Part shown: in pieces, positions 6,361-52,800 of the stretch
How positions within the stretch are numbered: position 1 is the first letter of the stretch
Layout of the letters: every line of letters starts with the position of its first letter
Assembly (NCBI GenBank): GCA_043228905.1
Contig: JBHGNT010000007.1
Coordinates: 14,446,001 to 14,510,000 of the forward strand
Length of the DNA: 64,000 nt
Direction of reading: 5' to 3'
From: Azolla caroliniana
Lineage: Eukaryota > Plantae > Polypodiophyta
The notes under the pieces: model-generated
Databases searched by the model: none
The model's input: only the letters and a program-made list of their open reading frames with translations
Told to the model about the DNA's origin: nothing
Translations under genes and position numbers: made by a program

Positions 6361-7240
6361 TGTAGTGTAGTGTAGTTAGTGGGTGACCATACTTAATGGT
6401 CACACCCATTGTAAGTAGTGTTTTTACACACCCAATGTAAGTAGAGAGAGAGAGTGTGTGTGTTAAGACAGAGAGAGAGAATTGAAAGGAAAGTATTATA
6501 TTGCACTATAAGATGGATTACAAAGAGTATGCAACATGGAGCTCAAGAATGGTGTTGAACCAATTAGGTTTTCGGATGATTAGTAGATCCCTATTTATAA
6601 GTCCCTATAGAGTATTCTAGAAGGTTCTAGAATATAGAACACTCTTGAATATTCTAGGACATTCTAGAATATTTATAGAGTATTCTAGAAGGTTCTAGTA
6701 TATAGAACACTCTAGAATATTCCAGGACATTCTATAATCTAGAGTAATCTAGAATATTCTTATGATATTAGATCATATATTCTAAAAACTATACATATAA
6801 ACATATCTTTACAATGGTGAAGGATTTGACACGTTGTCGTAGTGTAATTCGCACACTACGTGAAATATGTAAGAATTATCTGATTAAGTATGAATAAAGA
6901 AATAAAAGAAAATATTAAAATATATGTTACATGCATAGGGCAAGATTCAAACCCTATACCTCCATGTAAACAAACCCCAAACCTTACCATTGTACTAACA
7001 TATCAGTGATCTAAGTATAGATTTAATAGATATAAGACTTATATTTACGCCTATTTTATAAAAAGCAACCCATGCACATTTAGAGTGCGTAAAAACTTTA
7101 TTTAGAAGAAAAATGCAAATAAAGAAAAAGTTACTCATGCAAGTCTAGAGTGCATGAGTAGTATATTTAGAAATTAAAAGCATGGTAGAAAAAGCTATTC
7201 AGGGACATCTAGTGTGCATGAACACTGTAGAAAAACATTA

Positions 7241-10212
7241 TTTAATTCCCAAGGATGGTAAAGATCTAACTATACTTGATAATTGGCGACCTTTGACGAT
7301 TCTCATTAATGCATATAAGATCATGGCTAAAGTTGTAAGTAGTCGATTGAAGACGGCCCTAGGGGACATAATACATACTACGCAAACTGACTTCCTCGAA
7401 AACTGGAGCATTGTTGACAATGTGATAACTTTTTGGGAGTATTCAGCATGGGCAGAGGAGCAAGGAGTGGACCTAGCAGTAATGTTACTTGATTTCGAAA
7501 AAGCATATGACAGGATCTCATGGAAATTCCTAGAAGCAGTGATGGATGCCCTAGGCTTCGAGCAGCAATGGATCCTTGGATTGGCTGCCTTTTATAGGGA
7601 TGCTTCCAGCCAGGTTTTAATGGCTGGAAGCTTGGGGAAGAGCTTTAGGATGATACGATCGGTACGCCAAGGATGCCCATTGGCCCTGTACTTATTCATT
7701 ATTGTAGTGGAAGGGTTGCATTATCAGATTAGTGATAGATATTGGCAAATACAAGGCCTTCCCCTACCCGAGGATGTAGGAATGATGCTTGATACAAAAT
7801 ATGCTGATGATACAACAATCTATGTTAAGGGGGATGCAAACAACTTGGACAGACTACAAAGTGCAATAAATGAGTTTTGTAGGGGGTCGGGTGCGAATAT
7901 AAACTGGAATAAATCTGTGGGCATTTGGATTAGCAATAAGCCTGTGGTAAATTGGGCTCCAAACCCTAATTTCAGATGGTTGAGGAGAGGAGAAGCTACT
8001 AGATACTTGGGTTTCAAAATCGAGATGGACATTGATCGCTCAAAACACTACACTCTACTTGTGGACAAAATAAAAGCGAAGTTAATATGGTGGAATGCAA
8101 GAAAACTATCCTTTGCTGCCAAGATTGTGATTGCAAATCAGGTTCTAATGGCCACTATATGACATACTGCGGCATGTTGGATAATCGCACCCAAGTCGAT
8201 GAAATTGATAAAAAAGTTGATCAGAAATTTCTTATGGGGGGCACTGAGGAAAAACATGCTTGTGTAAAGGTTGCATGGACTACACTCATAAAAGATAAAA
8301 GTGAAGGTGGGGTGGGACTAATAGATCATGTGGTGCAAACGAAGGCCTTGGTAGGCAAATTGGTGGTCAGGAGCTTGCAACCACCTGAGGCACCTTGGAA
8401 GATTCTCTGGCGACGCAGATGGAAGATGTGGTTGCCAAGACATGGTGGAAGTTGGCCAAGTAGCGCTTTTTGGGGGTTTGTGCCTGAAATGCGACCCAAA
8501 TACCGGGGATGTACACAGAATATATGTGCTGTTGGAATTATGAAGGCATGGAATGGAATAAGAAAGGGAATCGTTTGTAGGTGGAGAAATGATGCATATG
8601 CTCGAATGTACATGCCTATTGTTTGGAACCCATTAATTAGAGATGTGGATGGGCTGATGATAGGACAAAAAGCAGGCTTCAAATGGGCCAATTTAATCAA
8701 TGCCCAAGGGAATACATTGGCAGATTGGAAGAGATTTCTATGTAATGATGTGGGCACTCAAAATGCTAGAATATGGAGGATAAACATGGGTAAATGCATG
8801 CTAATGAGGATGACAGATGCCTTTGCATGCAGCGGGCAAATCTTGGAAGATGCAACCATAAGTCCCTCTGAAATGGAATGGACAGGACTTATCGATGCTG
8901 AAAATTATCTAATTGGAATTCAGGGAATGAAAGCCGGTTCTAATGAGGCATGCTACTACAAAATAGAGCATAGAAGGGTAATATGTGAGTAACCAGCCTA
9001 TCAAACTGAAAGGCCGATTAGGTTGCTTGCAAAAAATGGAAAGGCTATGATAGTTGACCCCGAGCCGAGTGAGCTCAAACCAACGACAATGTGTTGGCCG
9101 ATAGAAGGGCATTCAAATACGCTATCATGGGACCTCGCGATGTATTTCTAGAAAACTCAAGGTCAAAGTGATGGTGCCAAGTTGGTGCAATTTTTCAGGT
9201 ACAACACGAAAATCGGGAGGCAAATTATCCTAAAACAAGAACACCAAGATATTGCAGCTTGTAAATTTTGGATACAAGAGGGCATTAGTGAAAGGAGATT
9301 AGCTAAATTCTGGAAAATGATATGGCATGACAGTGGTGATTGCAAGATAATGATGTGCTTATGGCTTATTGTGCATAGAGCCTTGCCAGTAGGGGCGTGG
9401 GCTAAAGGCCCCAATGTAGACCCTAGATGTACTTGTGGACAACTAGAAAGCATTTCCCATTGTCTCTGGGAATGTCATGAAGGTATGGTTGTATGGAGAA
9501 GGGCATTACAATTGCTTTGCCATGCCTCTAGCTCATTTACCCTCAATTGGGGACATGCTTGTTGGAATTGTCTTGATGATGACGTAGAGAAATTTGATAG
9601 CACATGTACAACTATGTACAGAGGGGAGAATGGAACTATTCGATTGATCACTGGTAACAATGCACCTAGAAGTAATGCCCAGAAGCAGAAAATTGAAGAT
9701 CTATGGATGTTGCTAGCACCCATAGTATGAACCATACGTACCATACGTGCATTCGCATTCGCGAATGATTAAATCATTCGCGAAAGAAAAACACCCTCAA
9801 AGAATGATAAATATCATACTTTTGGATTAACTATTTATTATGAGGTAGATAAGCGTAAAAATAAAAAAAAAACAAAAAAAAACATTAAAAAAATGGGAAA
9901 AAAACAAAAAAAAAACACAAGAATGTTAGGATAACATTCACATTCGTTTTCCAAAGTAGGAAAACGAATGTTATACTACACGAACACGAATTTTACGTAC
10001 TATGCTAGCACCCATTATCATATGGAACATTTGGACCGCAAGATGTACCAGGGTATTTTCAGCAAACAAACGGCCTACAGCAGAATCTATTAAGCTAATA
10101 TGGCACATGTTAATAACTACATTGAGGGCCCAATATGAGCGGATTGATGGAATAGATGATGCTTCAGATTTAATGAGGCTGAATTTTAGAAAACGATGGT
10201 GTACTAAAGAAA
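7241..10212 (+). mobile_element. Internal L1 LINE ORF2 fragment (RT plus zf-RVT) inside the 5' LTR of element A
   Basis: NWRPLTILIN, LDFEKAYDRISW, SVRQGCPL, YADDT motifs; C-terminal CxC...ESISHCLWEC; stops and frameshifts. Confidence 0.9.
9721..10004. mobile_element. hAT-type MITE (284 bp) inside the L1 fragment
   Basis: Ends CATAGTA / TACTATG; perfect 8-bp TSD CTAGCACC (9713-9720, 10005-10012); LINE frame LLAPI resumes after it. Confidence 0.85.
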
Positions 10213-13200
10213 GGGTTGATTAATAAATTATATTCGTGGGATTCCCGAATTTGCCATCTATTTCTCTCTTGCAATCTAAATTCATATGGTTGTTGATTTT
10301 TATAAGGGTTGATTAATAAATTATATTCGTGGGATTCCCGAATTTGCCATCTATTTCTCTCTTGCAATCTAAATTCATATTCTTTCCTAAACATTAATTA
10401 AGACACTATACTCGTAGGATTCACGAGTTTCATATCTTTCTTTCTTATAATCTATTCATATTCATAACTAAACTCGTCTCAAATTATTCCTCCTCCTAGT
10501 CCAAAACCCCAGCGGTTCCCAACCGACTCACGCAACGATCCAGCGCCGAAAGGCACGACACAGTTGGTGAACTCGACGTGTACATGGGTGGCAAGGAGAT
10601 GGAAAATCAACAAGAGGCTAACAATATGATGACAATGTTCGAGCGGATGCTACAAGAACAACGCGCGATGTCGGAGATTGCGGCGGCAGTAGAGCGGCTT
10701 GTGTAACGGAACGAGCAATTCAACGGGAAGGATGTGTCACGTTATTTGCGGGACTACAAGGCGGAGATGCTACGGTGCGGAATATCGGAAGGATTGCAAG
10801 TGACATCCTTCAATCGGGTGGCTACGGACGGGCTTCAAGGGAGTATCCACGGGATATGACAACAAAATCCGATGTGGGAAGCGTTTGAAGAAGCGCTGAA
10901 GAACACGTTCGCTACGAGGACTCTTCCAAGGCAAAGCGGAGGGGATTCAAAGATTGGATGGAAATGCCGGACAAGGGACTGAAGGTCCTTGATGTGTTTT
11001 CGGCATTCGAAAGTCGATTTGGGAGGTTGTCCGCAAGAGATCAAGCTATCCTCACATTGCACAAAATGATCATGTTCTTACAAGCCGTGGATGTCCGAGA
11101 CTGGGAAGACCTTGGAGTGCTTCTAGAGGACATGACTACTGAGAGTAGTGGCCTTACCAATACATGGGAAAACGTGCGGGACATTGTCATGCGATACACA
11201 AAAAGGGGCCAATGGCTTGGTAATGAAGAAAAGAGGGTTTCAGAACCGAATCCGAAAATCAAGATCCGGATTGGAAGACCATCAACCATGGGCTCGGGAG
11301 ACTACGACCGAGAAGGGAATCGATGCAACCACGGTGGAGCAGTTGCTGAACGAGATGGAGAATCTGAAAATCATAGTGGTGAAGAAGTTGGAAGACTGTC
11401 CCACAAGTTCCAAGTATATGGACCGTCGGTGCATATGGTGCGATAGCACTGAACATGATCGGAAGGATTGTGATGAGCACAAGGAGACGCTATGATGGGA
11501 TCTTATCTACTACGAGGGAAATCAGATTCATTCGATGGACTCTCGGAAACCACTCCGGCCGAACTTCCGAAAAGGCGGCATGAAGAAGGTCCTAGAGGAG
11601 ATAGTGGCGAAAAGAAATTATGCGACAACTGCGGGAATACGTGTGGGGGAGTCATCTGGAGCACAGACATCTTTTTGGCCGAAAGTGCTAGAAATCTCGG
11701 AGAAAGTCGCTTTTGATGAACTCCGGAGCACTGCGGAAGGCATTCGGGAAGCTATGGGATGGGAGTGCCCCGTAGATAAGAATAACATACATGCATTATG
11801 TCAATTGCATGAGGTGTATGTAGATGAGAAATGATGGTGCACGGATGATGCGGCCAGGCCATCAGAGACACCGGAGAGTTGGAACTCTGAAGGGAAGGGG
11901 AAAGGAAAAACAATTCCGGCATTCAAACTCGCTTCGGACATCGAATAAAGGACGGACCTAAAGAAGGTGTTCGAAGAGAGAATCCTTGATAGTCTGGTGG
12001 AATTTTTTCTCGTTGGGAATTACTCGGAATAACAAAGAAGGAATTCCACAATCTTCTTGTCGATCTCGTAAAACGAAAGAGACAAACTACGGAGGAAAAT
12101 GCTCCAAGGGTGAATGAGAATACCGTTCTAATGAATGACACGAAAGTGGAGGATGAAATTCCGAACTCCCACTACACAAGGCCACACTGGGCACACGCAA
12201 CTACGGTCCGATTCGGAAACATCAAAGAGCCCATACTAGCATTGATTAATCACGGGTAAGAGATCAATTTGTTGTCCAAGGAGTTCTACCAAAAGGGGAA
12301 ATGGCCTATAAACACCAGCCATGGATGGAAGATCCGGGCAGCCACAAAAGCCACGAAAGATCTATTTGCGGCTTGTCCGGATATGACGGTGAAGATCGGA
12401 GATGTGGAGATTGACCAAAATTTCTTTGTTCAAGATGAGGTCTCACATTCCGTGATCCTCGGGCAACCCTTTATCACGGCTTCACGGATGGAGACAAAGG
12501 TGCTCGATAGTGGAGCGGCTTTTGCATGAATTTGGAGCCAAAGCAGAGGGAAAACCATCCAATTCCTAACTATGCCATCGAATCACGAAAGGAACAAGAG
12601 AGAGCTCTTGTCCCAACCAAAAATGGTTTTTTAAAGTGGATTGTTGCGGAGTGGGGAAATGATAGTCCGAGAAGCCCTAATACCCCACATAGGAAGAAAA
12701 CTCTCAGAGCAAAACAAGTATGAATCGGTCTGGATGGGGCATGTACATACACGGACATAACCGGAGTAATGAAGAAAGAATTCCGAAAGGTGCAAGATGA
12801 GTTATGGTTTGCATCAATCATAAAAGAAGATGAAGAAATCGTGGGAGTAGTCAAAGAAGTGTTCAATGGGAGCACACTACAATGGCTTGAAGAGCTTGTG
12901 GAAGAGAATAGCCAGGGAGACTGGGTAGTCCCGGTGGAATTAGTTGAGATTTACGAGATCATTGCGAAAATGGGGCCGGATGCGCTCCGCAAAGAAGAAG
13001 CAATGGTATGTACAAAATATAAGACCGTGGAAAAGAAGGTGAAACTGTCCGCGGGACCGTTACCCGCCAATAGCGAACAAAAGAGGAAAGAAGTCTCGAG
13101 AGATCTGACACTTCGGAAGTCCGTGGATATCGGACATGCCTTCACGAATGAAACCTGGAAGAAACTTCGGATCGGTGGAGGTGGGTTCCTCTTACAGAAC

Positions 13201-15698
13201 GAAGAAGAATGGTTTCGTGAGATGCTGGAGCAACATGGAAAAGCATTCGTATTCACATCAAGAGAGATAGGGTGCGTTAATCCGAAGATAGTAGAATCGA
13301 TGGTGATCTTCTCGATTTATCATGTGTCGTGGAACCTGAAGCCGATTCCGGTGCCACGGGCGCATATTCCGAAAATCATTGACTTGCTCAAGGAGAAGGT
13401 GGCGATGGGGATTCTAGAGCCATCAAATGCTCCGTACTCAAATAGATGGTTTACGGTTCCTAACAAGAATGGGTCACTCCGATTCATTCAAGATTTGCAA
13501 CCGATGAACAAAGTCACGATCCGGAACTTCAGAGTCGGTCCGATAGTGGACGAATTTGTGGAAGTGTTTGCCAGACATGCGATATACTCCATCGGAGACC
13601 TATACTCCGGGTATGACCAATTCCAACTAGCCGTGCAGAGCCGAGATATCACTACAATGCAAACACCGATAGGATTAGTTCGGATGTGCATGATACCACA
13701 AGGAGCGACAAACTCGGTCGCACATATGCTGAATGCAATGAACAAGGTGCTCCGAGACTGCATTCCGGAGATAACAATGTCGTTCCTACATGACATTCCG
13801 ATGAAAGGATGTGCGGTGGAAGAAAAAGATGAGACTATGGATGATCGAGGATGCTGAAAGTTTGTAGTTGACCATATTCGCGATTGCGAGAAAGTGCTAC
13901 AGAAGTTAGAAGATGTGCACCTAACACTCTCCGGAGAGAAATCGGCATTTGGACAAGAAGAGATATTGCTAGTCAGACATCTATCTGGGCCCTATGGCCG
14001 AAGACCGTCACTAGTCAAGATTGATGCGATTCAAGCTATACAAGAAATATGCGAGTCACAATCTGAAGTTCGTAGATTTCTTGGTGCATGTGCATTTTAT
14101 CACATATGGATTCCACACTATGCACACATTGCGGACCCACTCTATCACTTGCTGCGGAAGGGTAAGAAGTTCGAATGGAGGCCGGAACATATCAAAGCCA
14201 TAAAGAAGCTCAAGAAAACACTACGGAGGGCAAAAGCACTTAAGAAGCCAAACTATGACCGACCGATCATAGTGATGGTTGATACAAGTTCAATCGGGAT
14301 CGGATGGGTCATCAATCAAGTCGAATCGAATGGTTCGCAATATCTGATCCAATTCGGAGCAAAAGTTCTCAATGAAAGGCAACACGGATATGCACAAGTT
14401 AAAAGAGAATTATGGGGAGTCATGTTAGTGATAAAATCAGATCGAGATTATTTGATCAGAGCCAAAGTAGTGATCGAAACAGATTGTCTTCTGATACTCG
14501 GGATGATGCGGTGTTGTACGATACCGGATATGGCTATGCTAAGATGGATTGCATATGTAAAGTTGCTTAATCCGGAGGTACAACACATCTCCAGAAAAGA
14601 CAATGCGGTAGCGGATATGCTTTCAAGGGCATGGTTCGGAGACGACATAACCGAATCCGATAATGAAGAAGTTTCCGAAAACTACTTTAGAGCACATATG
14701 CCGGGTGAACGTAATCCAAGAATTTCGGGAAGCCGAATACGAGGGAGAAAGCCTGATGATCGGGAAGGTGCTAAAAGAAATCGAGGAATCATCGGACAAT
14801 ATGGAAAAGAGAGCTGAGATCCGAAGTAAGAAGCGGCAAGTATGGAAGTTCTTCTTGAACAATGGATTAATCTGGAGGGAGCCGAAAAGACCGGATGGCA
14901 TACCGCTGCGGGTAGTCGGAACAAAAGAGCAATGAAATCGAATAATATTCGAATTTCATGAATCCGATTGGGCTGGACATCGGGGAACATGGGCAACATT
15001 TTCGAAGATCAAGCAAAAATATTGGTGGAAGAATATGTACAAAGATGTAGTGGAGTTCACGGGAAGCTGCGAGAAATGCCAAATCTACTCAGGAGTTCGG
15101 CACCGAGATGAATTACATCTGACATTCTCACCGAAAATCAGCTTCAAATGGATGGTCGACATTGTGGCCATGCCCACCGGGATCAGACAAAAGAAGTACT
15201 TGGTATTAGCTCGGGAAGATCTGACGAACCAAGTAGAAGGTCAGGCGCTAAGGAGGAAAACATGTTTTGCAATATGTCAATTTCTCTTGGAAGAAGTGTT
15301 CTGTAGGTACGGGTGCATAGGACAAGTGATTGCGGATCAGGGAGAACTTGACTATGATAAAGCTAGGGAATTCTTCACCAAACATGGAGTACGATTAACA
15401 CTAGCCACGACATACAATCTGGAAGCCAACGGGAAGATCGAACGAGGACATAGTCCAATCGTTAAAGCACTTGCAAAAGCATGCGATGGAAGGGTGAAAA
15501 TTTGGCCGTAGATGCTTTCGTATGCACTATGGGTAGATTGCACAACGCATAGTTCCGTGATAGGTTATATGCCAGCGGAACTTATGACCGGCCAAGCACT
15601 GGTAATGCTGGCGGAAACCGCAATTGCGACATGGACAGTGCTGCCGTGGAATGAAGAGATGAGTTGAGAAGAACTACTAGTGGTTTGGATACGACAAC

Positions 15699-17944
15699 TG
15701 CCACGACACAGTGACGTCAAAGACACACTTAGTGAGGATTGAACTCGTAACCTCACATCTAGTATTCTTGTTCCATTCCATCTTGTCTCCTTCATTTTTG
15801 TCTTCATGCTCGTGTCATTCCCAACTTCTTAAGTTCCACGCTCTTAGCCCCATCATGCATGCTTCGTCGTAGTCCATGGTTGGTGTGTCTGTGACAATTT
15901 GAATCCCTTCCAACTAGAAGCATCACCCTTCTTCGTCATCGCCTTCGCCTCTAGAGTTACCATCATCACTGTCCTTGCTTCCGGAGTTACCATCATCAAC
16001 ATCCCTGTCTTTGACATCATCATTTTCAACACCTCTTCGCCAAGCTTCATCCTCATCAACACTACTTTGCATGGTCTTTCATCATCATCATTGTTCCACC
16101 CTCTTCATTGTCATTATTATCATCTATAGGCATCATTTAGCATCACAATTTTGGTGAGGATTGCCTTCGATCGCTCACCTTCCCAGTTGCTGTGGGGGTC
16201 ACAACCGCTCACTTTCCTGGTGAGGATCGGATCATTGCTCGCTTGCACTCCATTTCCATTTTAGTTCAAGTCTCGCTCCACATTCCTTTGGCAAGGACCG
16301 ATTTTGATCTCTCACCTTCTACTTCTGGTGGGGGCCACAACCGCTCACTTTCCTGGTGGGGATCGCATTAGTTTCTCGCTAGCACCTCTCATGATAGAAG
16401 AAGATTTTGGTGAGGATTGATTTCGATCGCTCACCTTCCCAGTTCAAGTGGGGGTCACAACCGCTCACTCTTCTCGTGGGGATCGGATCATTGCTCACAC
16501 GCATTCCATTTTCATTTTAGTTCAAGTCTCGTGCCACTTTCCTTTGGCGAGGACCGATTTCGATCACTCACCTTCAAGTTCCGGTGGGGGTCACAACCGC
16601 TCACTTTTCTGGTGGGGATCACGCTAGTTTCTCGCTAGCACTACCATTTGTGCTGTGTTTTGGGTCAACCTCGACTTACCCTCTCATAATAGAAGAAGTC
16701 GAGTTGACTGCTTCACTTGCACTCCTTTGCCCGTTCGTGTTCCAATTCTTGGTGAGGGCAGCATGGTAGCTCACCAAGGTTCGTGTTCCAGTTCTCGGTG
16801 AGGACCCCATGGTCTCTCGCTCCCGTTCGTGTTCCAGTTCCTAGTGATGATCGCATGGTCGCTCACGCCCGTTCGTGTTCCCGGTGAGGGCAACATGGTC
16901 ATTCACGCCCATTCGTGTTCAAGTTCCCGGTGAGGGCCGCACATGGTCGCTCACGCCCGTTCGTGTTCGAGTTCCCGGTGAGGGCCGCATGGTTGCTCAC
17001 CTGTTCCTGTTCGCGTTCCCTATGAGGGCTACATGTTCGCTCACTCCCGTTCGTGTTCTAGTTCCTGGTGAGGGCCGCATAGTCGCTCACTCCCGTTCAT
17101 GTTCCAGTTCCCGGTGAGGGCTGCATGGTCGCTCACTCCCGTTCGTGTTCCAATTCCCGATGAGGGCTGCATGGTCGCTCATGCTTGTTCATGTTCCCGG
17201 TGATGACCGCACATGGTCGCTCACGTCTGTACGTGTTCTAGTCTTCGGTGAGGGCCATACATGGTCGCTCACACCCATCGGGGTTCCTCTCCGGTGAGGA
17301 CCGTACATGTCGCTCACGCCCGTTGGTGTTCCAATCTCCGGTGAGGACTGCACATGGTCACTCACACCCATTGGTGTTCTAGTCTCCGGTGAGGACAACA
17401 TATGGTTCCTCGCCCGTTAGTGCTCCAATTCCCGTTCACCCCTACACCACGGTTTCAAAAAGGCGATCGTAAAGGGGAGGATAATGTCACGACACAGTTA
17501 GTGAGGATTGAACTCGTAACCTCACATCTACAAGATATCATACTCAACCATTTTGATATAAACATGCATTTGTATATAATATTGGTTTAGTATTATATAG
17601 TCTAGCATATAGTACATTTCAGAATCAAAATATTCTAGTCGGTAGTATATTCTAGAAATATCGTACGTCATATTCGAGATGAGTATATTCTAGACATATT
17701 TCTCGAGTATATTCTAGAGATATTAATTCTCGGAACATGTATAAATACTTGTAACCTCCTTGGTCCCTTTCAAGGGATTCAACACGAGTCATTGACACAT
17801 CAATCTAGTATTCTTGTTCCATTCCATCTTGTCTCCTTCATTTCTGTCTTCATGCTCTTGTGTCATTCCCAACTTTTTAAGGTCCACGCCCTTAGCCCCA
17901 TCATGCATGCTCCGTCGTAGTCCATGGTTGGTGTGTCTATGACA
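15699..17944 (+). mobile_element. Non-autonomous, non-coding LTR element (TRIM/LARD-like) inserted in the integrase of element A
   Basis: 5' LTR 15699-15896 (internally deleted), 3' LTR 17485-17944, PPT AAAGGGGAGGATAA, TSD ACAAC/ATAAC; host frame IRQL|ERRP resumes. Confidence 0.85.
16730..17430 (+). repeat. Tandem array of ~46-bp hairpin-forming units (~15 copies)
   Basis: Consensus GGTGAGGGCCGCATGGTCGCTCACTCCCGTTCGTGTTCCAGTTCCC. Confidence 0.9.
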
Positions 17945-18303
17945 ATAACTAGAGAGAAGACCGAAAGACATAGCGGAAGCATTATGCCGACAACAAGAAC
18001 CATGGTTCCAAAACAAAAGTCGGTTCCAGAACAATAGTCGATTCAACACAAAGCACCGTCTATGACCATGAAAAATTGAAGAACGAGATTGGGTGATAGT
18101 CTATGACAATAGTTTGGATCATCAACACACAACAATCCGGAAATTCGCTAAAAGGTGGTTCAGACCATACGAAGTTCGGAAAGTTTTCGACAACGGAACC
18201 TACCAACTAAGTGAGTTCGATGGAATGGTACTACGGGTGCCTATAGCGGGGAAATGGGTGAAGATTTTCAAGAAGCGAACTGACGATGAACCCTACGTGA
18301 CCT

Positions 18304-18734: not shown

Positions 18735-20250
18735 GACCTTAAACAAGATTGTCAACGAGGAGCAATCGGATTGAAAGATCTCGGTGGTGCGGAAAGCGAA
18801 GAAAGTGGGCTAGAATTGATAATCGACATAAGGGGAGAATCTGAGAGTGCTACAGATGAAGGAGAATAACATGGATCGGAATTTCGGCACATACCGGAGG
18901 ATGTGCGGGTTCGGAGGGGGCGAGTGTCATAGTGTAATTTGCACACTACATGAAATATGTAAGAAATATTCGATTAAGTATGCATAAAGAAATAAAAGAA
19001 AATATTAAAATATATTTTACATGCATAGGGCAAGATTCCAACCCCATACCTCCATGTAAACAAACCCCAAACCTTACCATTGTACTAACATATCATAAGT
19101 GATCTTAATATAAATTTAATAGATATAAGACTTATATTTACGCCTATTTTATAAAAAACAACCCATGCACATTTAGAGTGCGTAAAAACTTTATTTAGAA
19201 GAAAAACGCAAATAAAGAAAAAGTTACTCATGCAAGTCTAGAGTGCATGAGTAGTATATTTAGAAATTAAAAGCATGGTAGAAAAAGCTATTCAGGACCA
19301 TCTAGTGAGCACGAACAATTTAGAAAAACATTATGCTATGTTTAGCCTCTTCCATCACTATATAGGGAAGAGAGAAAGATGTATATGGTTAATTTTTTGT
19401 AAGGGTTGATTAATATATTATATTCGTGGGATTCACGAATTTGCCATCTATTTCTCTCTTGCAATCTAAATTCATATTCTTTCCTAAACATTAATTAAGA
19501 CACTATACTCGTGGGATTCACGAGTTTCATATATTTCTTTCTTATAATCTATTCATATTCATAACTAAACTCGTCTCAAATTCTTCCTCCTCCTAGTCCA
19601 AAACCCGACTCACGCAACGATCCGGCGCCGAAAGGCACGACAACGTATATAACAAGGTTGTGGGTTCAAATCCTTTTGAGTCATAATGACAAGTCATCAT
19701 GATACTACCCCCCTTCTTCGACGACACGTATGACGGATCTTATGGTTTGTACTAGGACTTGGTTTACGAGGATATCGGACATTCGCAAGATTTGTTACAG
19801 GTTCCCAAGTTCGATCATTGGGTGTATAGCCTAACCAATCAACCAAGTAATACAACTTGTTGTGCATGATTCTAATCGAGAATGGCAACAACCTCCAATT
19901 CGGGCCCTTCAAAGAACTCAACAGGTGGCGGGGGAGTTGTAAGAGGACCCAGAATTGAACTTGTGGTGTAAGGTTCCAAAAGGGATACATGAAATACCGT
20001 ATGAAGACGCATTGCGGAGGGAGGCCAAGATGAAATGCAACATCACTTATCTTACTAGTGATCATGTACGAACCAAAACATTGGTAATCCAATTTACCGC
20101 AAGGCTTATTGGTCTTGATGTTGTATTCGAGAAGCCATACACGATCCCCAACACAAAACTTTTTGGAGTCTAGGTGATGACAATCCACAAGCCTCTTGTG
20201 TGTAACTTGAGTATCATGCCAATTGTGGAGACTCCCAAGGAGGTTACGTG

Positions 20251-21107
20251 TGTCAGGAACAGTACTAAGACAGAGAGGGAATTAGTACTAAAAGATGCGA
20301 GTTAGTACTAAGAGAGAGAAAAGGGTGTAGAACTCACGAGAGAAGGAGAGAGAAAGAGAGAAAGAGAGGAGAGATAGAGAGAGAGAGAGACATAGAGAGA
20401 GAGAGAGACATAGAGAGAATGATGATAACAAAAGATATATTATATTATATGAAGAGTAAGTATAAGAATAGCTATGAGGCGTAAGACTGGCGTTGAACCG
20501 ATTTGGTTCGAAATAATGCCTTGTGCCTCCTTTTATAGTATTTTCAGGAGTACTCTTGAAGTTTCTAAAATGTTCTAGAGAAATCTAGAAATATACATCA
20601 ATTTTCTATAGTAATATAATAAATGAAAATAATATCCTTCGTATTACAATATATAGTCTAATGGCAAGGGATCGACCCATGTAACATAAGGTCATGGGTT
20701 TGAATCTGGCCATATCATGAGACTATCCCCCTTTGAAAACGACGAGTGTTACGAGTCGTTTTGGATTGAGGACCCAGTTTGTTTGGATATTGGCAATGGA
20801 AGTCTTCAAGAAGAGTACGAGCATTGGACACATTCTCAATTGGTTCCCAAGTACGCTCGCTAGGGCTATATCCTAGCCAATAGACCAAATAGTAGAGCTT
20901 GTTACGAACAATCTTTGAATCGAGGATGGTGGCAACCTCTTACTCAGGTCCATCTTCAAGTTTGATTGGAGGTGGAGGTGGTTTGATACGACCTAGGATA
21001 GTGCTGTCTTGATAGGGTTGTAGAAGAGAACTATGAAATATCGGATGTATCTATAGTTGCGGAGGTAGATCGAGACGTAAAGTGACATCATTAATTTTTC
21101 CGATAAT
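20251..21107 (-). mobile_element. 3' end of a Tcn1-like chromovirus (chromodomain plus 3' LTR 20251-20722)
   Basis: KLYYLVYWLGYSPSERTWEPIENVSNA chromodomain; PPT next to 20723; LTR homologous (inverted) to 23514-23927. Confidence 0.8.
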
Positions 21108-23355: not shown

Positions 23356-26300
23356 TGTCATGATATGACAAGACTCAAACCGATGACCTTATGTTACATG
23401 GGTCGAGTTCTTGACCATTAGACTATATGTTGTAATACTAAAGATATTATTTTCATTTAAGTTTTACTATAGAAAATTGATATATATTCCATATTTCTCT
23501 GGAACATGGTAACTGTCATGATATGACAAGACTCAAACCGATGACCTTATGTTACATGGGTCGAGTTCTTGACCATTAGACTATATGTTGTAATACTAAG
23601 AATATTATTTTCATTTAAGTTTTACTATAGAAAATTGATATATATTCTAGATTTCTTTGGAGCATTCTAAAAACTTCAGGAGTACTCTTGAGAACACTAT
23701 AAAAGGAAGCACAAGGCATTATTTCAAACCAAATCGGTTCAACGCCAATCTTAAGCCTCCTAAGCTACTATTTTATATTCTCTTAACATAATATATATCT
23801 TTTGTTATTATCATTCTCTCTCTCTCTCACTCACTCTTTCCTTCTCTCAAGAGTTCTACACCTCCCTTAGTACTAATCCTCATCTTTTAGTACTAATTCC
23901 TTCTCTGTCTTAGTAATGTTCCTGACAATACTTCTTTTTCTTAGTACTGTCTGTTCCTAACATTTTGAACCGATTTTCGTGTCCTTCCTTCTCTACCTTA
24001 TCTTCTTACTTCTCACTCCCTTCATACTAATCTCTTATTCCTCTTTTCTCTCATACTATGGCCATTGTTAGTGCTCAAGAATATCAATCTGTTTTCTTGG
24101 AGTTGCAATGCTTGAAAGAGAAGTTTCTCGTATTGGAACAAGAAGATCAACGACTGTTGGGGGAGCTTCAAAAAATCTCCTTAGAGAAGTAGCAGATGCA
24201 ACAACAACATGGGGAACTAGTGTTACGCGTGCAACCACTCAAAGCAACCATAGTAGCGATGCAACAACAAGGACCCAGTATGCAAGGGATTCATAAAGAA
24301 CCCAAGATCGGTCTTCCCATGAAATTCGATGGAACACGATCGCAGTTTAGAGAATTCCTTAATCAGGTACGATTAATAATTCAAATGCATCCTTCCCGAT
24401 ATCCCACTGATGCATCACGAGTGGGTTTAGTAGGCATGTTGTTAAGTGGCTCAACTTTGGCATGGTTTGCTGCGTTGTTAGAAAAGGAATCTCGTTTACT
24501 AAACAATTTTGAAGAGTTTTTAAGTGAGTTTAAAGCCTGTTTTGGAGGTACTGACAACATAAGGACAACAATCAACAAAATCCGAAGATTACGTCAAGGT
24601 GATCATCCAGCCTCTGCATACGCTGCAAATTTCTTCCTACTCGCCTCCGATATCCCCTGGGATGATCAAGCACTAATGGAGCAATTTCGTTACCGTCTAC
24701 GTAATGATGTCAAGGATTTACTCTTGACCTTCCCCGAAGAACCAAAGTCATTGACAGAAGCAATAAGTCACACGGTGAGATGTGACAACCGTCTTTTCGA
24801 ACAACGTTCGAAACGTCAGTTCCAGATGCCAAGGGCAAGATTAGAGCCCACCTCAATGGTAGCAAAACCTTTTCCAAGGGAGTCATATAATGTGTGTCCA
24901 GTGAATACTCCAACTCTGATGGAAATTGACACTACACGTCGTCGTGGACCATTACCTTAAGAAGAAAAGCAACGACGCCGAGCAAATCGACTATGTCTTT
25001 ATTGCGGTGGACCAGGGCATATTGCAGTGAACTGTCCCCATAGGCCAAGAAGACAAGTAAACCAAATAATTGCTAGTTCTAATTGTACTAAACCGGAGTC
25101 TAGTTAAGTAGGAATATATGATAGTCCTACTAGTACTAATAACCCAAATCTATCGAACAAATTTGATGTCCTTAGTCAGTTAGAAGAAGAGTTAAACAAC
25201 TAAGTCCAACCAAAATAGGAGCTGTTTGGTTGGACAACCGTAGATCTGTGTCGCCCATTAGTGGTTCCATTCCCTCTAATCCAATTAGCAATGTGTTCTT
25301 AGCCCAAGTAACACTTAGTACTAAAAGTACCTCTCCAGTAGATGTGTCAACACTCCTAGATTCCGGAGCTAATTCTTGCTTCATGGATAGGAAATTTGCC
25401 CAAGCTCATCAGATATCCCTAAGAAAACTATCGTGTCCAGCCTCTGTAGTAGTCATTGATGGTCGTCCCACTGCTTCTGAAAATATCATACAAGAGTCAG
25501 AGCCCGTTAATATTGTCCTAGATAATTTAGCATGTGTAGTATCCTTTAATATAATTAGTATCCTAGAACATCCCATTGTTTTGGGATTACGATGGTTCGA
25601 GTTACATAACCCAGACATAGATTGGAGAACAAGAGAAATCCGGTATTGACAAACCCGAGGATCTACTCATAAGATTGCAACCATTTCGCTACATCAGTTG
25701 CGTGAGGAAGGATGCAAGGAAGAAATGTTTCTCTTCGCAGTATCAGTAAAACCCTCTAACACCACTAAAGAGGACTCCACCATTCAACTTCTAGAGAAGT
25801 ATCGTCATTATGCCGATGTGTTCGATAAAGTACAAGCCAATACGCTTCCTCACCATCGACTGTATGAATGCCCCATCAATTTACAACTGGGAAAAGAGCC
25901 ACCATGGGGACCAATCTACAATTTGTCACCAACCAAGCTAGAAGTCCTTTGAGCCTATATAGAGGAGAATTTGGCAAATGGTTTCATTCGACATTCGAAA
26001 TCTCCAGCCGGCGCACCCATTTTCTTCGTCAAGAAAAAGGATGGATCACTTCGTCTCGTCGTAGATTACCGTGACTTGAATAAGGTCACCATTAGGAATA
26101 GGTATGCACTTCCCCTTATCTCACGTCTTTTAGAATGGATCAATGGTGCAATGTTCTTCAAAAAGATCGACTTACGAGGAGCATATAACCTTGTATTGAT
26201 CCGACCAGGAGATGAATGGAAGACTGCATTTCGCACCAGATATGGGCACGTTGAGTATACAGTCATGCCATTCGGCTTCACTAATGGAACAAAAGTATTC

Positions 26301-28583
26301 TAGCACATGGCAAATGATATATTCTGAGACCTCTTGGATGTTTGTTTGATCATCTATTTGGATGATCTACTGGTTTATTTGAAGGCCCAAGAAGAGCATG
26401 ATTCTCATGTACTGTTAGTACTAAAACGACTTCGAGAACATGATCTTTATGCTAAGCTGGAAAAATGTAGTTTCAAGTGCAACCACGTAGTATTTCTCGG
26501 CTATGTCATTTCCTCGGAAGGCATTTCCATGGATCCAGCTAAGGTCAAAATGGTGGTAGAGTGGTAGACTCCGCGTTCATTGCGAGATGTGCAATGCTTT
26601 TTAGGCTTTGCCAATTTCTACCACAAGTTTATACATGATTACTCAAAGCTTGTTTTGCCTCTCACACAACTTACCAGGAAGGGACAATCGTTCGTTTGGT
26701 CTGAAGAAGCAAACATGGATTTTGAGAGTCTTAAGAAGGCATTTACATCAGCTCCTATTCTAGCTCATGTTGATTTGGAGAAATCATTCATTATCGAAGC
26801 ATATGTGTTAGATTTCGCCTTGGGTAGCATTCTATCACAACAAGGCGATGATGAAAAGCTACATCCTGTTGCTTTCTACTCACGCAAGTTTGACGCCGCC
26901 GAAATCAACTATGAAATTCATGATAAGGAGCTATTAGCAATAGTGGACTCTTTTACGCAATGGAGGCATTTTCTAGAGGGATCTTCTCATCAAGTCACCG
27001 TATTCAGTGATCACAAAAACCTTGCCTACTTTCAGAATGCTCGTGTGTTAAATCGACGTCAAGATCGGTGGGCACAATTCGTCACTCGTTTCGACTTTAA
27101 AATTAGATATCGTCCGGGGAAGCAACAAGGGAAGGGAGATGCATTATCACGACGCTCGTATCTAGCACCACGTCTTGTCGAGCCAACTTTCGATAACCAA
27201 AAGCAAGTAATCCTGGGACCAACACGATTGCAAGCAACACATGTCTTCGGTATGCCCTTGGATTCCCACGTTATCGATACCATACGTGAGGACTTGAGGA
27301 CAAATGCTTTCACCCAAGCCATTCTAGCACAAATTGATCCCTCTCGACCATCTTGTTCACAGTCGCAACAACTAGGTACGGACTATCGACAATTCGAATG
27401 TCATGATGGATTACTATTCTTTAAGAAACTCTTGTATGCTCCTAATGGTTCTTGTCTCCTTCAAGTAGTCCAAAAATGTCACGACACATATATAGGTGGG
27501 CATTTTGGTAGTACTAAAACATTAGATTTAGTACAACGAGCATTCTGGTGGCCCCATATGCGACAATTTGTCGAAGATTTTGTTCGGACTTGTGATACAT
27601 GTTGCAGAGCAAAAATGCCAAGGTATTATCCATATGGTTTATTAGAACCATTACCACTTCCAAGCAAGCCGTGGTAATCCATTGCTCTAGAATTCATCAT
27701 AGATCTTTCGGTCTCTAAGGGATTCGATGCGATCTTAGCAGTGGTAGATCGATATACGAAGATGTCCCATTTCCTGTCCTGTACTAAGGAAATCTCCAGT
27801 GAGGAAACCGCCGAAACTGTCATGTGTGAAGTATGTCAACATCATGGCCTTCCCGATAGAATCATTAGCGACTATGGACCCAATTCGTCTCGAAATTCTG
27901 GAAGCACCTCTTTAAAATGCTCAAGGTCACTTGTAACCTCTCCTCTGACTACCACCCACAAATAGAAGACCAAGCAGAACGAACAAATCAAATGTTGGAG
28001 CAGTATCTTCGGTGTTTTCTAAGCTATCATTAGGATGACTGGGCGGATATTCTCCACTTCGCCGAATTTGCGTATAATAACTCTATCCACTCATCAACAA
28101 AGGTTACACCATTTTATGCTTATACGGGCTGTCACCCCCGATGGTGTGTATTTGAAACCCCAGAGCTACCCACAAATCCTTGTGCAGAGGATCGTTTGGT
28201 GCGGTTATGCAAGATACAAGCGGATTTATCTACTCATCTACAACAAGCTCAACAAACACACAAGGTTTATAAGGATCGTCATCGGCTTCCATCCAGTTTT
28301 AACATTGGAGATCGGGTATGGCTACTACAACGACACATCAAGACTACTCGCCCATGCAAGAAGTTGGATTATTGGCGATTAGGTACTTTCCGTATTATCG
28401 GAAAAATTAATGATGTCGCTTTTCATCTCGATCTACCTCCACAACTTCGAATACATCCGGTGTTTCATAGTTCTCTCCTTGAACCCTATCAAGACAACAC
28501 TATCCCAAGTCGTATTAAACAACCTCCACCCGTGATCGAACTTGAAGATGGACCTGAGTACAAGGTTGCCGCAATCCTTGATC
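23356..28583 (+). mobile_element. Tcn1-like chromovirus, 3'-truncated (5' LTR 23514-23927 with a 158-bp junction duplication; gag-PR-RT-RH-INT-start of chromodomain)
   Basis: Gag EPKIGLPMKFDG; CLYCGGPGHIAVNC; protease LLDSGA; [15 protein letters not shown]; RNase H NYEIHDKELLAI; integrase GHFG...CDTC; EYKVAAILD. Confidence 0.9.
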
Positions 28584-46818: not shown

Positions 46819-49800
46819 TGATGATGAGAGAGAAGAGAAGAGGAAGAAACAAGAATACTTTAATATACTATTACGAAAATAATACAATCCTCTTAGACTC
46901 CGAAAGTAACAACCCCAAACAACTACTTCAACATACTATTAACAAAATAGCCTTTCCTTCTTCTCACTTTCTTCTACTAATCTTCTTCTTACTTCTTCTA
47001 ATCTTCTTCTTCTTCCTCACATCTTCTTCTTCACATCTTCTTCTTCACTTCTCCTTGTAGATCTTCTATCCCTTCCTTGTAGATATTCTATTCTTCCTCC
47101 ATCCCCCATATTGCTAAGAATACTGCATAGTTATAGGCTTTTAGTTGCGTTATTCTTGCTTTTTTCTTTTCTTTTCTTTTACATATCCTCGAGTTTGTGT
47201 GGCACTTGTGTCGTGCCTTTCGGCGCCAGATCGTTTGCGTGAGTAGGGTGGGAACCACTGGGGTTATGGACTAGGAAGAGGAAGAATTTGAGGCGATTTT
47301 AATTATGTATAGATTATTAGAAGCTTGTGAATCCCACAAGTAGAGTTGTTTTAGTTTGTCTTAATCATAGTAATAAATTGAAATAGTTTAGAATAGTTTA
47401 GAGTAGAAATAGAAAAGAGATCAAACCTTGTGAATCCCACAAGTATTACATTAATCAATATTTATGTAAGAATATGAATTTAGATTGAAAGAGATAGATT
47501 ATATAAAACTTCGTGAATCCCAGAATTATATTAATTGGTGTTTTAGGAAATATATCCAATTTCCCAAATATTTTTCACACACCTTACATTGTGCTCCCCA
47601 TCCTTATGTAGTGATGAGGGAGTCTTAGCAATCCATGCTTTTTCTTCTCTAACTATAGACTCCATGTTTTTTCTGTCGATAGACTACATGCTTTCTTTAA
47701 CATGCTTTTTCTAAAAGTGATCATGCGTTTTTATTATTATTATCTAACTATAGCTTTTTTATCTACAAAATATACGTGAAATAAACCTTCTATGTGGGAT
47801 GTCTACTTTTTAAACATTAATGAAATGCTAGTGTAATGGTAAGGTTTCACATTATTAACATGGAGGTGCAAGGTTTGAATCTTGCCCTATGCATGTTATA
47901 TATATTTTATTGTTTTCTACTATTTATTCATATTTATTAAATCGGTACTTTATAAGTTTTTCACGTAGTGTACAAAATACACTACGAAACTCGCCCCCTT
48001 TGAACCTGCACATCCTCCGGCATGTGCCGAAGTTGTCGGTGATTGTTAGTCTCGTCCGTCCGTTCTCCGCATGGTTGGTTTCGTCGCCGGTCATTTTTGG
48101 TTGCCGGCCCCGTTCGGTCTCTGGTTTTTGGTTGCCGACTCTGCCCGGTTTCCGATTCAGTTCGGTTGCCGACCCTATCTGGTCTCCCATTACTGGCCCT
48201 TGTAATTCTTCTTTACTTGTAGTACCCTTCGTTTCTCTTTCTAAGTCAGCTTTGTCTCTCCATTTTGAACACATCCATTCTTTCCACCCGAACCATTGTC
48301 GCCATCCGATCTACCATAGTCTTCGTTCACTCTTTGCATTGCCATGAGTGGTTGTCATGGTCCCTTGTGGTCCTCTTAAGCATCTCTGCATGTTGTCTCT
48401 CTCCGCTCCGCGCTTGTCTTCCGTAGGTTCTACCCACGCGTCGATGTCGACCTCTGAATACACACTCGTTGTTAGGTCCTTGTGCGGCTTTAATGCATGC
48501 TTTATTTCTCGTTGTTGCGCATGCGTCGTATTACGCCATAGCACATGCTTCGTATTCCATCGTAGTGCATGCGTCGTATTACCCCGTAGTGCATGCTTCT
48601 TTTTGCACTGTAGTGCGTGCTTCTTTTTGCACCGTAGCGTGTGCTTCTTTTTACGCCGTAGCGTGTGCTTCTTTTGGTGCCGTAGCGCGTGCTCCGTATT
48701 ACATGCTTCTCCCATCGTAGACCCGACCTTCGCGTTGTCGTGCTTTTGTTTAAATCGTAATTTCAGACGGATCATCTTCCATCCGAACCGGCTTCCGACT
48801 TTACCTTCCTTGCCGCCACCTCCCGTCTCTCCTGTCTCACGTTGGTTCTCGGACGCAACCGCCGAAGTCTCTAAGATTAGTGCGCATGACCCCTCGGTAT
48901 TATCATCCTTTGTCATTTCAACCATAGCCACCTTTTCAGCTATCTCTCTATCGTATGCATCGGTCTCGGCCTTCGTTTTCTCTCCGCCATCTTTTGTCTC
49001 TTCGGTCTCACGTTGCTTTTCGAATGCAACCGCCGAAGTCTCTGGAATTAGTGGTGGGGAAGTCTCGATATGGCCATTTGCCATTGATTCGTCCATAGCC
49101 ACCTTCGATTCGATGTCATCTTTCGTGGCGACCTCCTCAATCAAGTCCTCCTTGCTCTCTTTCACTGCATCAATTATGCAAACATCAATTATGCTTACCC
49201 CTTTTTCACCCGATGTTTCAGACACTTGTATTCCGAAATCTTCTTCTACACTTAGGTTATCGGCCTTATCCTTCGCCGTCGTTCTTTCGCAACACAAGAG
49301 GGTAGCTTGTTGTACACCCTCTTCCGTCGCACCATCATGTTGTATTTCGGCCTTCATATCGGCTCCATCATTTGTCTTCAATCGACCATCCTTCATCAAC
49401 CATGTCATTGACAAGATTCTCATCTTCCTCTCATCATGTCTCCAACATACCCTTTGGACTTCGGCCCAATCTTCGGTAAGACCATTCGCACCGTCATCGT
49501 CTTCGAGTTCAATCCCGATGTCCTTCCTTTCTTTTCAATTGATCGATTTTACGAACATTAGGACTTTATCCTCTCCCACCAATCTTTGTTCCCGCTTCGA
49601 GAGTCGAACAAAACGATTCTCGAACTCTCGGAATACTTGTGTTGCACTCCGGTAAGTCTTCTCCGATGCCACCCATTCGTCCAATTCTCGCCGATCTTGT
49701 CACTTCGATCTCTTGAAATCATATGCCTCTCGTAAAGCTTCTTCAAAGGACCCCCATGTCGGGTTTTGTTGCCCTATTTTGTGGATTCTCTCTTGTAACT

Positions 49801-52800
49801 CATCTGTGACTACTCAATTGAAGGATGTCACTTGCAATCCTTCCGGTATCCCACATCGCATCATCTCGGCCTTGTATTCGCATAGATAGCGTAACACATC
49901 CTTTCCGTCGAATTCCCTGTTTCTTTGCACAAGCCGCGCTACTGCTGATTTCATCTTCGACATTGTGCGTTGCTCTTCTTGCATCCGCTTAATCATCATC
50001 ATCATCATATTCATCGCTTCTTGTTGATTCTCCATCTCCTTACCACCCCTCTTCACGTTGGGTTCACCACTTGTGTCGTGCCTTTCGGTGCCAGATCGTT
50101 TGCGTGAGTCGGGTGGGAACCACTGGGGTTATGGACTAGGAAGAGGAAGAATTTGAGGCGATTTTAATTATGTATAGATTATTAGAAGATTGTGAATCCC
50201 ACAAGTAGAGTTGTTTTAGTTTGTCTTAATCATAGTAATAAATTGAAATAGTTTAGAATAGTTTAGAGTAGAAATAGAAAAGAGATCAAACCTTGTGAAT
50301 CCCACAAGTATTACATTAATCAATATTTATGTAAGAATATGAATTTAGATTGAAAGAGATAGATTATATAAAACTTCGTGAATCCCAGAATTATATTAAT
50401 TGGTGTTTTAGGAAATATATCCAATTTCCCAAATATTTTTCACACACCTTACATTGTGCTCCCCATCCTTATGTAGTGATGAGGGAGTCTTAGCAATCCA
50501 TGCTTTTTCTTCTCTAACTATAGACTCCATGTTTTTTCTGTCGATAGACTACATGCTTTCTTTAACATGCTTTTTCTAAAAGTGATCATGCGTTTTTATT
50601 ATTATTATCTAACTATAGTTTTTTTATCTACAAAATATAAGTGAAATAAACCTTCTATGTGGGATGTCTACTTTTTAAACATTAATGAAATGCTAGTGTA
50701 ATGGTAAGGTTTCACATTATTAACATGGAGGTGCAAGGTTTGAATCTTGCCCTATGCATGTTATATATATTTTAATGTTTTCTACTATTTATTCATATTT
50801 ATCAAATCGGTACTTTATAAGTTTTTCACGTAGTGTACAAAATACACTACGAAACTCGCCCCCTTTGAACCTGCACATCCTCCGGCATGTGCCGAAGTTG
50901 TCGGTGATTGTTAGTCTCGTCCGTTCGTTCTCCGCATGGTTGGTTTCGTCGCCGGTTATTTTTGGTTGTCGGCCCTGTTCGGTCTTTGGTTTTTGGTTGC
51001 CGACTCCGCCCGGTTTCCGGTTCAGTTCGGTTGTCGGCCCTATCCGGTCTCCCATTACTGGCTCTAAACGCCTCTAACTTTATTTCTCCTCAATTTCATT
51101 TATCTTTTAACTCTTGAACCTTTCATATTGTGCTTTATTCTTCTATACCTTTGCATCCAATGTATTTGTCACGGTCTTTTCCTATGAGCAAAAATTGACT
51201 TGACATTTAGCCCCCCTCCTTGCTTTTTGGTGAACCATTTATGGTGAACCCTAAGCTACTAATAAAACCAAAAAATTCTCCTTCGCCTTATTCATGGATA
51301 TAGACAAAGAAGGAGAGAATAAATAAAAAGAAACAAATTATGTGAGTAAAACCCCCGCTAGTTGGTAGGAAAAACCTCACACTCCTAGACACATACACAC
51401 ACACATAGACATTGACAATAGCCACCACTATCTTTCTCCTTGTCAACACAAAGAAAGAGGTTACAAAAAATATTATATCTTCCGCAACTCTCCAAATACT
51501 AGGTGGACGATCGGATACATAACTCTTGATAGAAGTAAGCATGCCAACATATGAATAAATCTTTCAAGCGATCAAACTTTTTGCACAAACACCTTCAAAA
51601 CTTTGAGACTTTTTGGAATTTTCACCTTTTGAATTTCTTCGATCTTTGATTTATCCATATAAATTCCTTCTTGGGACACGAAATTCTCCACACTACCTTG
51701 TTTTGTATGTATGACCATTTCATCTAGAATCTCATCTCGAAAAGGAACCAAAAATTGATCTTCTTTGGTTGAATCAATCGAGGGTTTGAAGTTTATGTCA
51801 TTCTTCTTTAGAACCACAACAATAGGTGAGACAAACTTCAAATCTTCCAACTTCATGTCTTCTCCTCTTATCTGTGAATAGTCAACAATGAATAACTTTG
51901 GAAACTTAGAAATAAGAGAAATAAACCTTTGATGCTCTCCTCGAATATTTTTGGAAATCATCTTTTCTTTTTCCCCCAAAGTCATAATACTTTTCTCCTC
52001 AATGACTTCTTCTTCCTCGTTAGACACCATGTGGAATGATTTGTTTTCCCTATCCCATGAAGATTCATCAATTGTTATGCTTTCCTCTTCTTGCTTGCCA
52101 TTGTCGATAGATGATTCCTTCTCCTTTATACATTTGATTAGTTGTTGTGGATCCTTTGATGGTGATAAGTTCATGATACTCCAGTCATGCATTACAAGTA
52201 ATTCTCTTGGCTCTTGATCAAATTGTTGTTGAAGAGTCGATGCCCACATAACTTTGTTGCTACTCAATGCAAATCCAAAACACAAATGTTCCACAAACAC
52301 CTTCATACACTGCAACTTGGCACTTACCAATGCTTCCTTACACGTATTGATCTCCAAAAGCCAATCTCCAGCTATGACTTCTAGGTTACCTTCTTCATCT
52401 TGCAACTCTGTTGTGGGTACTTCACCATCAACAACGTTTTCGATCATATCTTCCATTTCATCTTACACATATTCATCATCAATCACCATATCGCTTGTTG
52501 TATCAATAATGTCCTCAACATGATGTACATTGGCATCACCATCCATAACATCGCTTCTCAGAACAATCTCCTTGGATTCTTCTTTCACATCATCATTCTT
52601 TGTATCATGGTTGTCCTCATGAACTAGATGGGGGAATTCCACATTCATCACCTCTTCTTCTTTGTCTTTGGAATCACCTTCATAGACATCATCATAACTC
52701 CAAAAATTTGAATAATGATATGAGGGAACCTGTTGAATCGGACATTGCAAGTATGCTTGTTGTTGGCTCATGATTGATCCACAATTATCATAGCTTGGAC

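Follow-up and report, generated by a model that had tools for sequence, protein, structure and literature searches.

Promoters of the tRNA type have been described in the long terminal repeats (LTRs) of tiny non-coding retrotransposons, the TRIMs (terminal-repeat retrotransposons in miniature). Here we describe a related module, facing backwards, in full protein-coding Ty3/gypsy elements of two distant lineages. The elements lie in a nest of plant retrotransposons in 64,000 nucleotides of Azolla caroliniana DNA (hereafter the window; NCBI GenBank assembly GCA_043228905.1, contig JBHGNT010000007.1, positions 14,446,001 to 14,510,000 of the forward strand). Helenus/TRIMp3 elements hold a tRNA-like LTR sequence with boxes A and B, as do the elements in the window (Kojima 2024, PMC10886601). 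However, Helenus elements are non-coding TRIMs of 311-1263 bp, whereas those described here encode gag-pol (with the exception of N, which is non-coding and 2.2 kb long) and have a TATA-like box. The tRNA part of Helenus lies in sense, in a Selaginella LTR and in animal LTRs of the supplement, and is likely the promoter of the element RNA (PMC10886601); in the window, all ten module copies are antisense, and the stems of the tRNA part have been lost. The module-bearing elements are not Helenus, since they lack both its short non-coding build and its sense orientation. Cassandra and Ajax TRIMs also have an internal promoter of RNA polymerase III (Pol III) in the LTR. Unlike the module here, theirs is a 5S type-1 promoter in non-autonomous elements, and in Cassandra it makes the element's own transcript (PMC10886601). 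Antisense boxes cannot make genomic RNA and would thus be kept for another reason.

The TRIM study argues that autonomous partners, which use RNA polymerase II (Pol II), probably do not have LTR sequence of this type in common with the TRIMs; it adds that tRNA-like parts are present in "not a few" LTRs of Repbase, but presents an analysis of TRIMs only (PMC10886601). It is possible that modules of this kind have been noticed before and left unpublished. No account of such a module in moss gypsy LTRs was found in a literature search that did not extend to most subscription papers or to Repbase. The accessible text of a study on moss chromodomain integrases makes no mention of tRNA, short interspersed nuclear elements (SINEs) or polymerase III (PMC7466625), and the accessible parts of the classification that treats the Phygy and Tcn1 clades mention no tRNA-like LTR sequence, whereas LTRs of both types carry the module here (Neumann et al. 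2019, PMC6317226).

The module is genuine in the LTRs of the window. A strict scan of both strands, using A-box and B-box consensus patterns, at most two mismatches in total and a permitted gap of 25-50 nt, returned 8 matches in 64 kb. All 8 are inside Ty3/gypsy LTRs, all are antisense and their gaps are 32 or 33 nt only; the mean in 20 local dinucleotide shuffles was 0.6 matches. A looser cut-off gave 22 matches against 11.25 in shuffles, which places the 14 additional ones at about chance level. A weight matrix trained on 28 modules from metagenome contigs only, with the window excluded from training, recovered the same 8 modules plus two B-box halves (19655-19673 and 15735-15753), and the corresponding figures from 10 shuffles were 0.0 and 0.6. 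In elements A and D, 108-109 nt lie between the end of the B box and the edge of the LTR, compared with 16-19 nt in the Tcn1-type elements. Three more LTR families of the window (31638/55896, 41454/44096 and 36586/45660) are without an intact module. The preliminary description of this DNA had cited motifs at ten places, and all ten were confirmed at their coordinates and strands. Its further statement that the module is always antisense and within 170 bp of the LTR start is correct for the window, where every copy is inside the first 165 nt, but fails in relatives, in which sense and paired copies exist.

Four different LTR families had been counted as separate cases; these collapse to two lineages. 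Phygy elements prefer NCGN target sites and have a short internal part, and Tcn1 elements combine a chromodomain with self-priming (PMC6317226). Elements A and D fit the Phygy clade, with no chromodomain found, a short internal part and, in A, a 4-bp NCGN target and a tRNA primer, while B, C, C' and N fit the Tcn1 clade, with a chromodomain in B and in the closest relatives of C and self-priming in C and N; both placements are by features and not by a tree with REXdb references. The primer-binding sites of C and N are complementary to the start of their own R region, about 30 nt after the TATA-like box (23964-23980 versus 23726-23750 in C; 15898-15914 versus 17766-17795 in N). An R-start motif is common to B, C and C', similar U3 repeats are found in B and N, and C and N are both self-priming, so the four families are not independent. 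Relatives of the A pol protein reach at most 60% identity in Riccia and Adiantum and up to 86% among metagenome proteins.

We used the best 80 of 256 Phygy-type loci from a single protein-anchored metagenome scan, which was aimed at Phygy and did not reach close Tcn1 relatives. LTR starts were set from the polypurine tract without use of the module: 43 were found, 3 were dropped for want of context, 2 were added by hand and 6 were too short, leaving 36. An antisense module is present in the first 400 nt of 12 of these 36 LTRs, one of them (L047) from a nested second LTR, and a sense match in 4, one of which (L022) the matrix did not retain. Among controls, 0 of 394 pol segments and 1 of 720 shuffles had a module; a few weak matches to coding DNA exist, mostly with a gap of 31. 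When strict matches from the window and the Phygy loci are pooled, the gap is 32-33 nt in 35 of 48. In a tRNA, G19 and G52 are equally far apart, and a genuine tRNA gene in the control locus L115 has a gap of 33 and is detected by the matrix. One feature of a type-2 Pol III promoter, an A box and a B box at tRNA spacing, is therefore present in the window and in its relatives.

Conservation is confined to short islands. We compared 33 modules in LTR context with a gap of 32-33 nt, obtained from 50 loose matches after removal of 7 near-duplicates and 10 coding or off-gap matches. At positions that had not been used in the search (tRNA numbering), A44 is present in 30 modules, G45 in 29, G46 in all 33, T47 in 31, T20 in 27, A21 in 26, a pyrimidine at 33 in 32 and A38 in 27. 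The tetranucleotide AGGT at positions 44-47 occurs with no more than one mismatch in 31 of the 33 modules, compared to 1 of 15 chance matches. Identity between Phygy modules and the edge-type (Tcn1-like) modules is 0.96 at positions 44-47 but falls to 0.31 at positions 24-43 and to 0.29-0.33 in the flanks. What the two lineages have in common is confined to the A box, the B box and AGGT, and the remainder is at background. C56 is retained in 27 of 28 metagenome modules (17 CA, 10 CG and 1 TG), although the search itself slightly favours C56. The earlier proposal of a tRNA-type module conserved above its LTR flanks in unrelated gypsy lineages is thus supported in the relatives by this comparison, and its frequency there exceeds that in shuffled sequence. 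On the LTR of element A, contig depth in four DNA runs peaks over the B box (188,543 in run X1, versus 4,908 and 793-4,301 in neighbouring U3).

Our preferred interpretation, to which we would give just under an even chance, is that the module is a candidate docking site for the Pol III factor TFIIIC that guards the Pol II promoter of the LTR; its barrier step is drawn from anatomy and yeast precedent. The module would be a tRNA-gene-like DNA element reduced to A box, AGGT and B box at fixed tRNA spacing, and would bind TFIIIC. Once bound, TFIIIC would serve as a boundary against neighbouring silent chromatin and against read-through, so that the Pol II promoter stays open. The module has the LTR edge on one side and the TATA-like box on the other, and in some relatives pairs of modules bracket that box; both facts fit a guard of the Pol II promoter. 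TFIIIC is the factor known to recognise boxes of this kind. Its sites are barriers, insulators and roadblocks in yeast (PMC4228148). Yeast tRNA genes and extra-TFIIIC (ETC) sites and the mouse B2 SINE boundary consist of B-box DNA that possibly acts without a tRNA product, as proposed here; those sites are host loci or SINEs and have been demonstrated by experiment, whereas the present ones are carried by LTRs, are known from sequence alone and have the additional AGGT (PMC4228148). Chromodomain integrases of mosses have been proposed to target heterochromatin (PMC7466625). The module may derive from a tRNA gene or a tRNA-derived SINE, its spread could reflect exchange of U3 segments or repeated loss, and it would be selected for as long as its family stays active, with decay in copies that have been inserted.

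The constraint on the module is likely read on DNA rather than RNA. Pairing of the tRNA stems is not above column shuffles in the acceptor (97/231 versus 89.4), D (66/132 versus 69.0), anticodon (69/165 versus 71.9) or T stem (104/165 versus 103.7). None of 10 module folds is a cloverleaf, whereas the control tRNA folds properly; ARAGORN reports no tRNA gene in the window, none in 20 module-bearing loci and one in the control L115; and Rfam gives no tRNA match in the window or at three module stretches. A shifted T-arm hairpin noticed by eye in A/D-type modules was rejected as not above shuffles (91/165 versus 86.2). Stems that do not pair and background identity outside the islands suggest that it is DNA that is constrained. 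The same is suggested by sequence islands that keep a fixed spacing in either orientation, have no common structure and do not match the primer tRNA.

These structural results also bear on the proposal that the module is a working Pol III promoter making an RNA of about 100 nt antisense to U3, with either the RNA or the act of transcription under selection. We consider this rather unlikely. A and B boxes are complete and at a working distance, and G46, a pyrimidine at 33 and A38 are RNA-level marks of a tRNA, which we count in its favour. Moreover, 5 of 10 modules form fairly stable hairpins (z of -1.98 or lower), and Cassandra is transcribed by Pol III (PMC10886601). However, the folds vary between families. 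A run of four T within 60 nt downstream occurs in 13 of 18 Phygy antisense modules, compared to 1 of 18 for four A; yet when these are collapsed to 12 modules the count is 7 against 4.6 expected (227 of 2000 shuffles), which is not significant, and LTRs without a module have a T run at the same place in 6 of 13. Edge-type modules end 16-19 nt short of the LTR edge, and most have no terminator inside it. An upstream CAA is present in 0 of 12 modules, compared with 36-45% of angiosperm tRNA genes (PMC11700998). The outward Pol III promoter suggested in the preliminary description thus gains nothing from either terminator or CAA start signals.

Pairing of an antisense module, placed at the 3' end of the genomic RNA, with the primer tRNA could in principle aid reverse transcription. 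Antisense orientation and a position in U3 meet the needs of such a mechanism. The primer site of Ty3 is bipartite, which offers a likeness. A further precedent is the stretch in U3-R of human immunodeficiency virus 1 (HIV-1) that resembles a tRNA-Lys3 gene (PMC6468702); tRNA-likeness in U3 is common to both cases, but the HIV-1 sequence matches its primer tRNA and the module does not. Positions 62-73, compared to the primer tRNA deduced from the elements' own primer-binding sites, agree at 64 of 216 letters, which is about chance. On this match we rejected pairing with the primer tRNA; C and N, moreover, use their own RNA as primer in place of a tRNA (PMC6317226), and sense copies keep the same boxes. 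We therefore regard a role in priming as highly improbable.

The distribution of the module among relatives is patchy. Carriers are found in all main branches of the pol tree, next to sister families without the module (in a quick tree from which L026 was left out), and at least 7 changes are needed to account for them (FastTree, with outgroups and three long branches left out). All carriers come from one accession series; the four tested LTR starts of other sources (L045, L055, L060 and L078) have no module. An edge-type module is present in two nested inserts of one family (L029 and L072), and L029 has the Tcn1-type R start. Distant chromoviruses (L001 and L082-L122; 42 loci and 207 kb, with identity no higher than 61% and many contigs ending before the LTR) yielded no module and only a bacterial tRNA gene. 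Scans of viral contigs returned 0, 1 and 0 loci. Two antisense copies per LTR are found in L036, L041 and L077, and a sense copy upstream of the TATA-like box, an arrangement confined to relatives, in L009-L011, L021 and L028. Copies bracket the TATA-like box in L041, in L077 and in L022 (first LTR): the one upstream is antisense, the one downstream is in sense, and both face away from the box. As a separate observation, AGGT and B-box halves without an A box occur at L006:272, L008:6109 and L037:4268, in L038 (617 and 768 nt into the LTR) and in L077 (277 nt into the LTR). They include copies in sense within R as well as duplicates within U3 that are antisense, and resemble TFIIIC sites that consist of a B box only. 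The 41 contigs of L082-L122 that match chromovirus pol are in prokaryote assemblies, and most of them are likely eukaryotic contamination.

Such patchiness is what one might expect of a neutral relic of an old tRNA-derived SINE in U3 that is carried along when segments of LTRs move from one family to another. The decay of copies in E, L011, N and family C points in the same direction, as does another U3 motif, present both in LTR E of the Phygy type and in the L029 insert of the Tcn1 type; insertion of a SINE has been proposed as the origin of Helenus (Kojima 2024, PMC10886601). A relic, however, does not readily explain why three short islands and their spacing are fixed while spacers and surroundings are at background identity, or why tandem and paired copies retain their boxes. 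Downstream of the B box the modules have no SINE body or tail in common, and neither the strict scan nor the matrix found a free copy outside LTRs in the window. On balance a relic seems unlikely.

Returning to the putative TFIIIC boundary, several results weigh against it. AGGT is outside the yeast B-box consensus, so TFIIIC alone would appear insufficient and the invariant G46 would be left unexplained. No module is present in the first 400 nt of 22 of the 36 Phygy LTR starts, and sister families differ in this respect, which indicates that it is dispensable. The 33 modules compared are related and not independent. Between A and D the boxes barely stand out: identity is 0.72 in the B box, 0.65 in the spacer, 0.88 in the A box and 0.72 and 0.63 in the flanks. 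TATA, R and U5 bins of the A LTR are as deep in contigs as the B box, and summed contig depth is no copy number. C56 is missing in 7 of the 8 full copies in the window, and mutation of C56 cripples TFIIIC binding in yeast (PMC4228148). In A and D its loss may be decay after insertion, because metagenome relatives keep C56. Family C differs from A and D here: no other letter at position 23535 reaches 40% of contig depth in three DNA runs, so that T56 is the majority, and contig depth has no peak over the module. Given these two results, the module of family C may be dead. A further run, X14, which is only guessed to be RNA, has 5 contigs on the C LTR and says nothing about expression.

A more ambitious form of the TFIIIC interpretation is that two unrelated autonomous lineages domesticated a stripped-down tRNA gene as a portable putative TFIIIC boundary, in some families as two diverging copies on either side of the Pol II promoter, and would thereby stay active in the heterochromatin into which they insert, with AGGT as an undescribed plant extension of the B box. 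We find this doubtful, though conceivable. If a TFIIIC barrier is at work, the transposons would encode their own defence against silencing, and TFIIIC sites would occur at every place where one of these abundant LTRs is found. A direct test of TFIIIC boundaries in plants would also become possible, in a group in which mosses are gene-targetable, and ready controls exist in naturally occurring modules that are intact, decayed, doubled or missing.

Domains of gag-pol are encoded by A, B and C. The first of these, on the plus strand at 6835-19642, is a Phygy-type gypsy element, a non-chromovirus with a tRNA primer site. Its 5' LTR (6835..10560, plus), identified by self-BLAST to 18925-19642 and followed by the primer-binding site after 10560, contains a LINE-like (long interspersed nuclear element) insert in the same orientation as A, which starts at about 7158-7242, ends at about 10210 and has RVT_1 and zf-RVT domains. 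The module of this LTR is at 6944..6997 on the minus strand, with an A box, 33 nt and a B box, and T at tRNA position 56. A broken pol (12724..15511, plus) includes reverse transcriptase, RNase H and integrase, with no chromodomain found, and groups with the Phygy-type loci L003, L004 and L076. The 3' LTR (18925..19642, plus) begins after the polypurine tract and has its module at 19034..19087 (minus), with G at position 56.

Insertion of A severed a module of chromovirus B. The A-box half, with 3 mismatches in the A box, is at 6807..6834 (plus); AGGT and the intact B-box half are at 19647..19672 (plus; 27.8 bits), near the left edge (19691-19704) of the minus-strand 3' LTR of B. When the halves are rejoined and the 4-bp target duplication (ACGT at 6831-6834 and 19643-19646) is counted once, 17 + 16 = 33 nt separate the boxes. 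The end of the B integrase with its chromodomain (19700..20248, minus) matches Pfam Chromo and SH3_Tf2-1 and is 40% identical to P0001. This nested arrangement is relevant to the integration-targeting signal suggested in the preliminary description, which we take as a landing pad or tether that would steer integration, of other elements or of the element's own complementary DNA, to Pol III sites. Yeast Pol III complexes do target retroelement integration (PMC4228148). In the window, where insertions are few, none is just upstream of a module, and no sign of targeting is seen; the LINE-like insert lies upstream of A's own A box at a distance of 244 nt, and A sits inside the B module at ACGT, which matches the known Phygy preference for NCGN (PMC6317226). 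A function in integration targeting is scarcely likely.

The remaining Tcn1-type copies are in C', C and N. The 3' LTR of C' (20251..20722, minus) is 77% like that of C and has a module at 20654..20706 (plus) with a gap of 32 and T at position 56. At 23356..23963 (plus), C has its 5' LTR (23514-23963) together with a second, tandem copy of the first 158 nt of that LTR, followed by the self-priming primer-binding site. The modules of C, both on the minus strand, are at 23372..23425 in the duplicated start, found by strict scan and matrix, and at 23530..23583 in the LTR itself, where the B box ends 16 nt inside the edge and position 56 is T. The gag-pol of chromovirus C is at 24193..28600 (plus), and its closest relatives carry PF00385. 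The non-coding element N (15700-17945, 2.2 kb), which has Tcn1-type priming, has an internal deletion in its 5' LTR (15700..15897, plus); the AGGT/B-box half is kept there at 15735-15753 (minus), and the self-priming primer-binding site follows. Its 3' LTR (17485..17945, plus), found by self-BLAST, has a module at 17505..17558 (minus) with a gap of 33, in which C56 is kept and position 52 is A.

Element D, a relative of A, is represented by two minus-strand LTR copies that share 98% identity, 47209..47989 with a module at 47829-47881 and 50074..50854 with a module at 50694-50746, both modules on the plus strand. The arrangement of D looks like a tandem whose flanks are duplicated: 47203-48200 equals 50068-51065 at 98%, 46826-47202 is like 53247-53608, and 46826-53945 is no clean insertion. 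The Phygy-type LTR E (55896-56495) has a lone A-box half at 56313..56323 (minus) that by eye resembles the L022 module; its B-box half is missing.

Other repeats were noted in the same LTRs. The interior of N (16148-17434) consists of GC-rich tandem repeats with periods of about 46 nt and 256 nt. The U3 of chromovirus B (6596-6785) holds an array of TTCnnGAA/GAAnnTTC units (4 and 6), which we take to resemble a heat-shock element, and N (17620-17720) has similar TTCTAGAA repeats. Finally, Phygy LTRs (56420-56470 and 32200-32260 in the window; L022 and L036) and a Tcn1-type LTR (L029:3970-4005) have in common an ATGCAT motif, rich in palindromes and located upstream of the TATA-like box, which is a second part of U3 shared across the two lineages.

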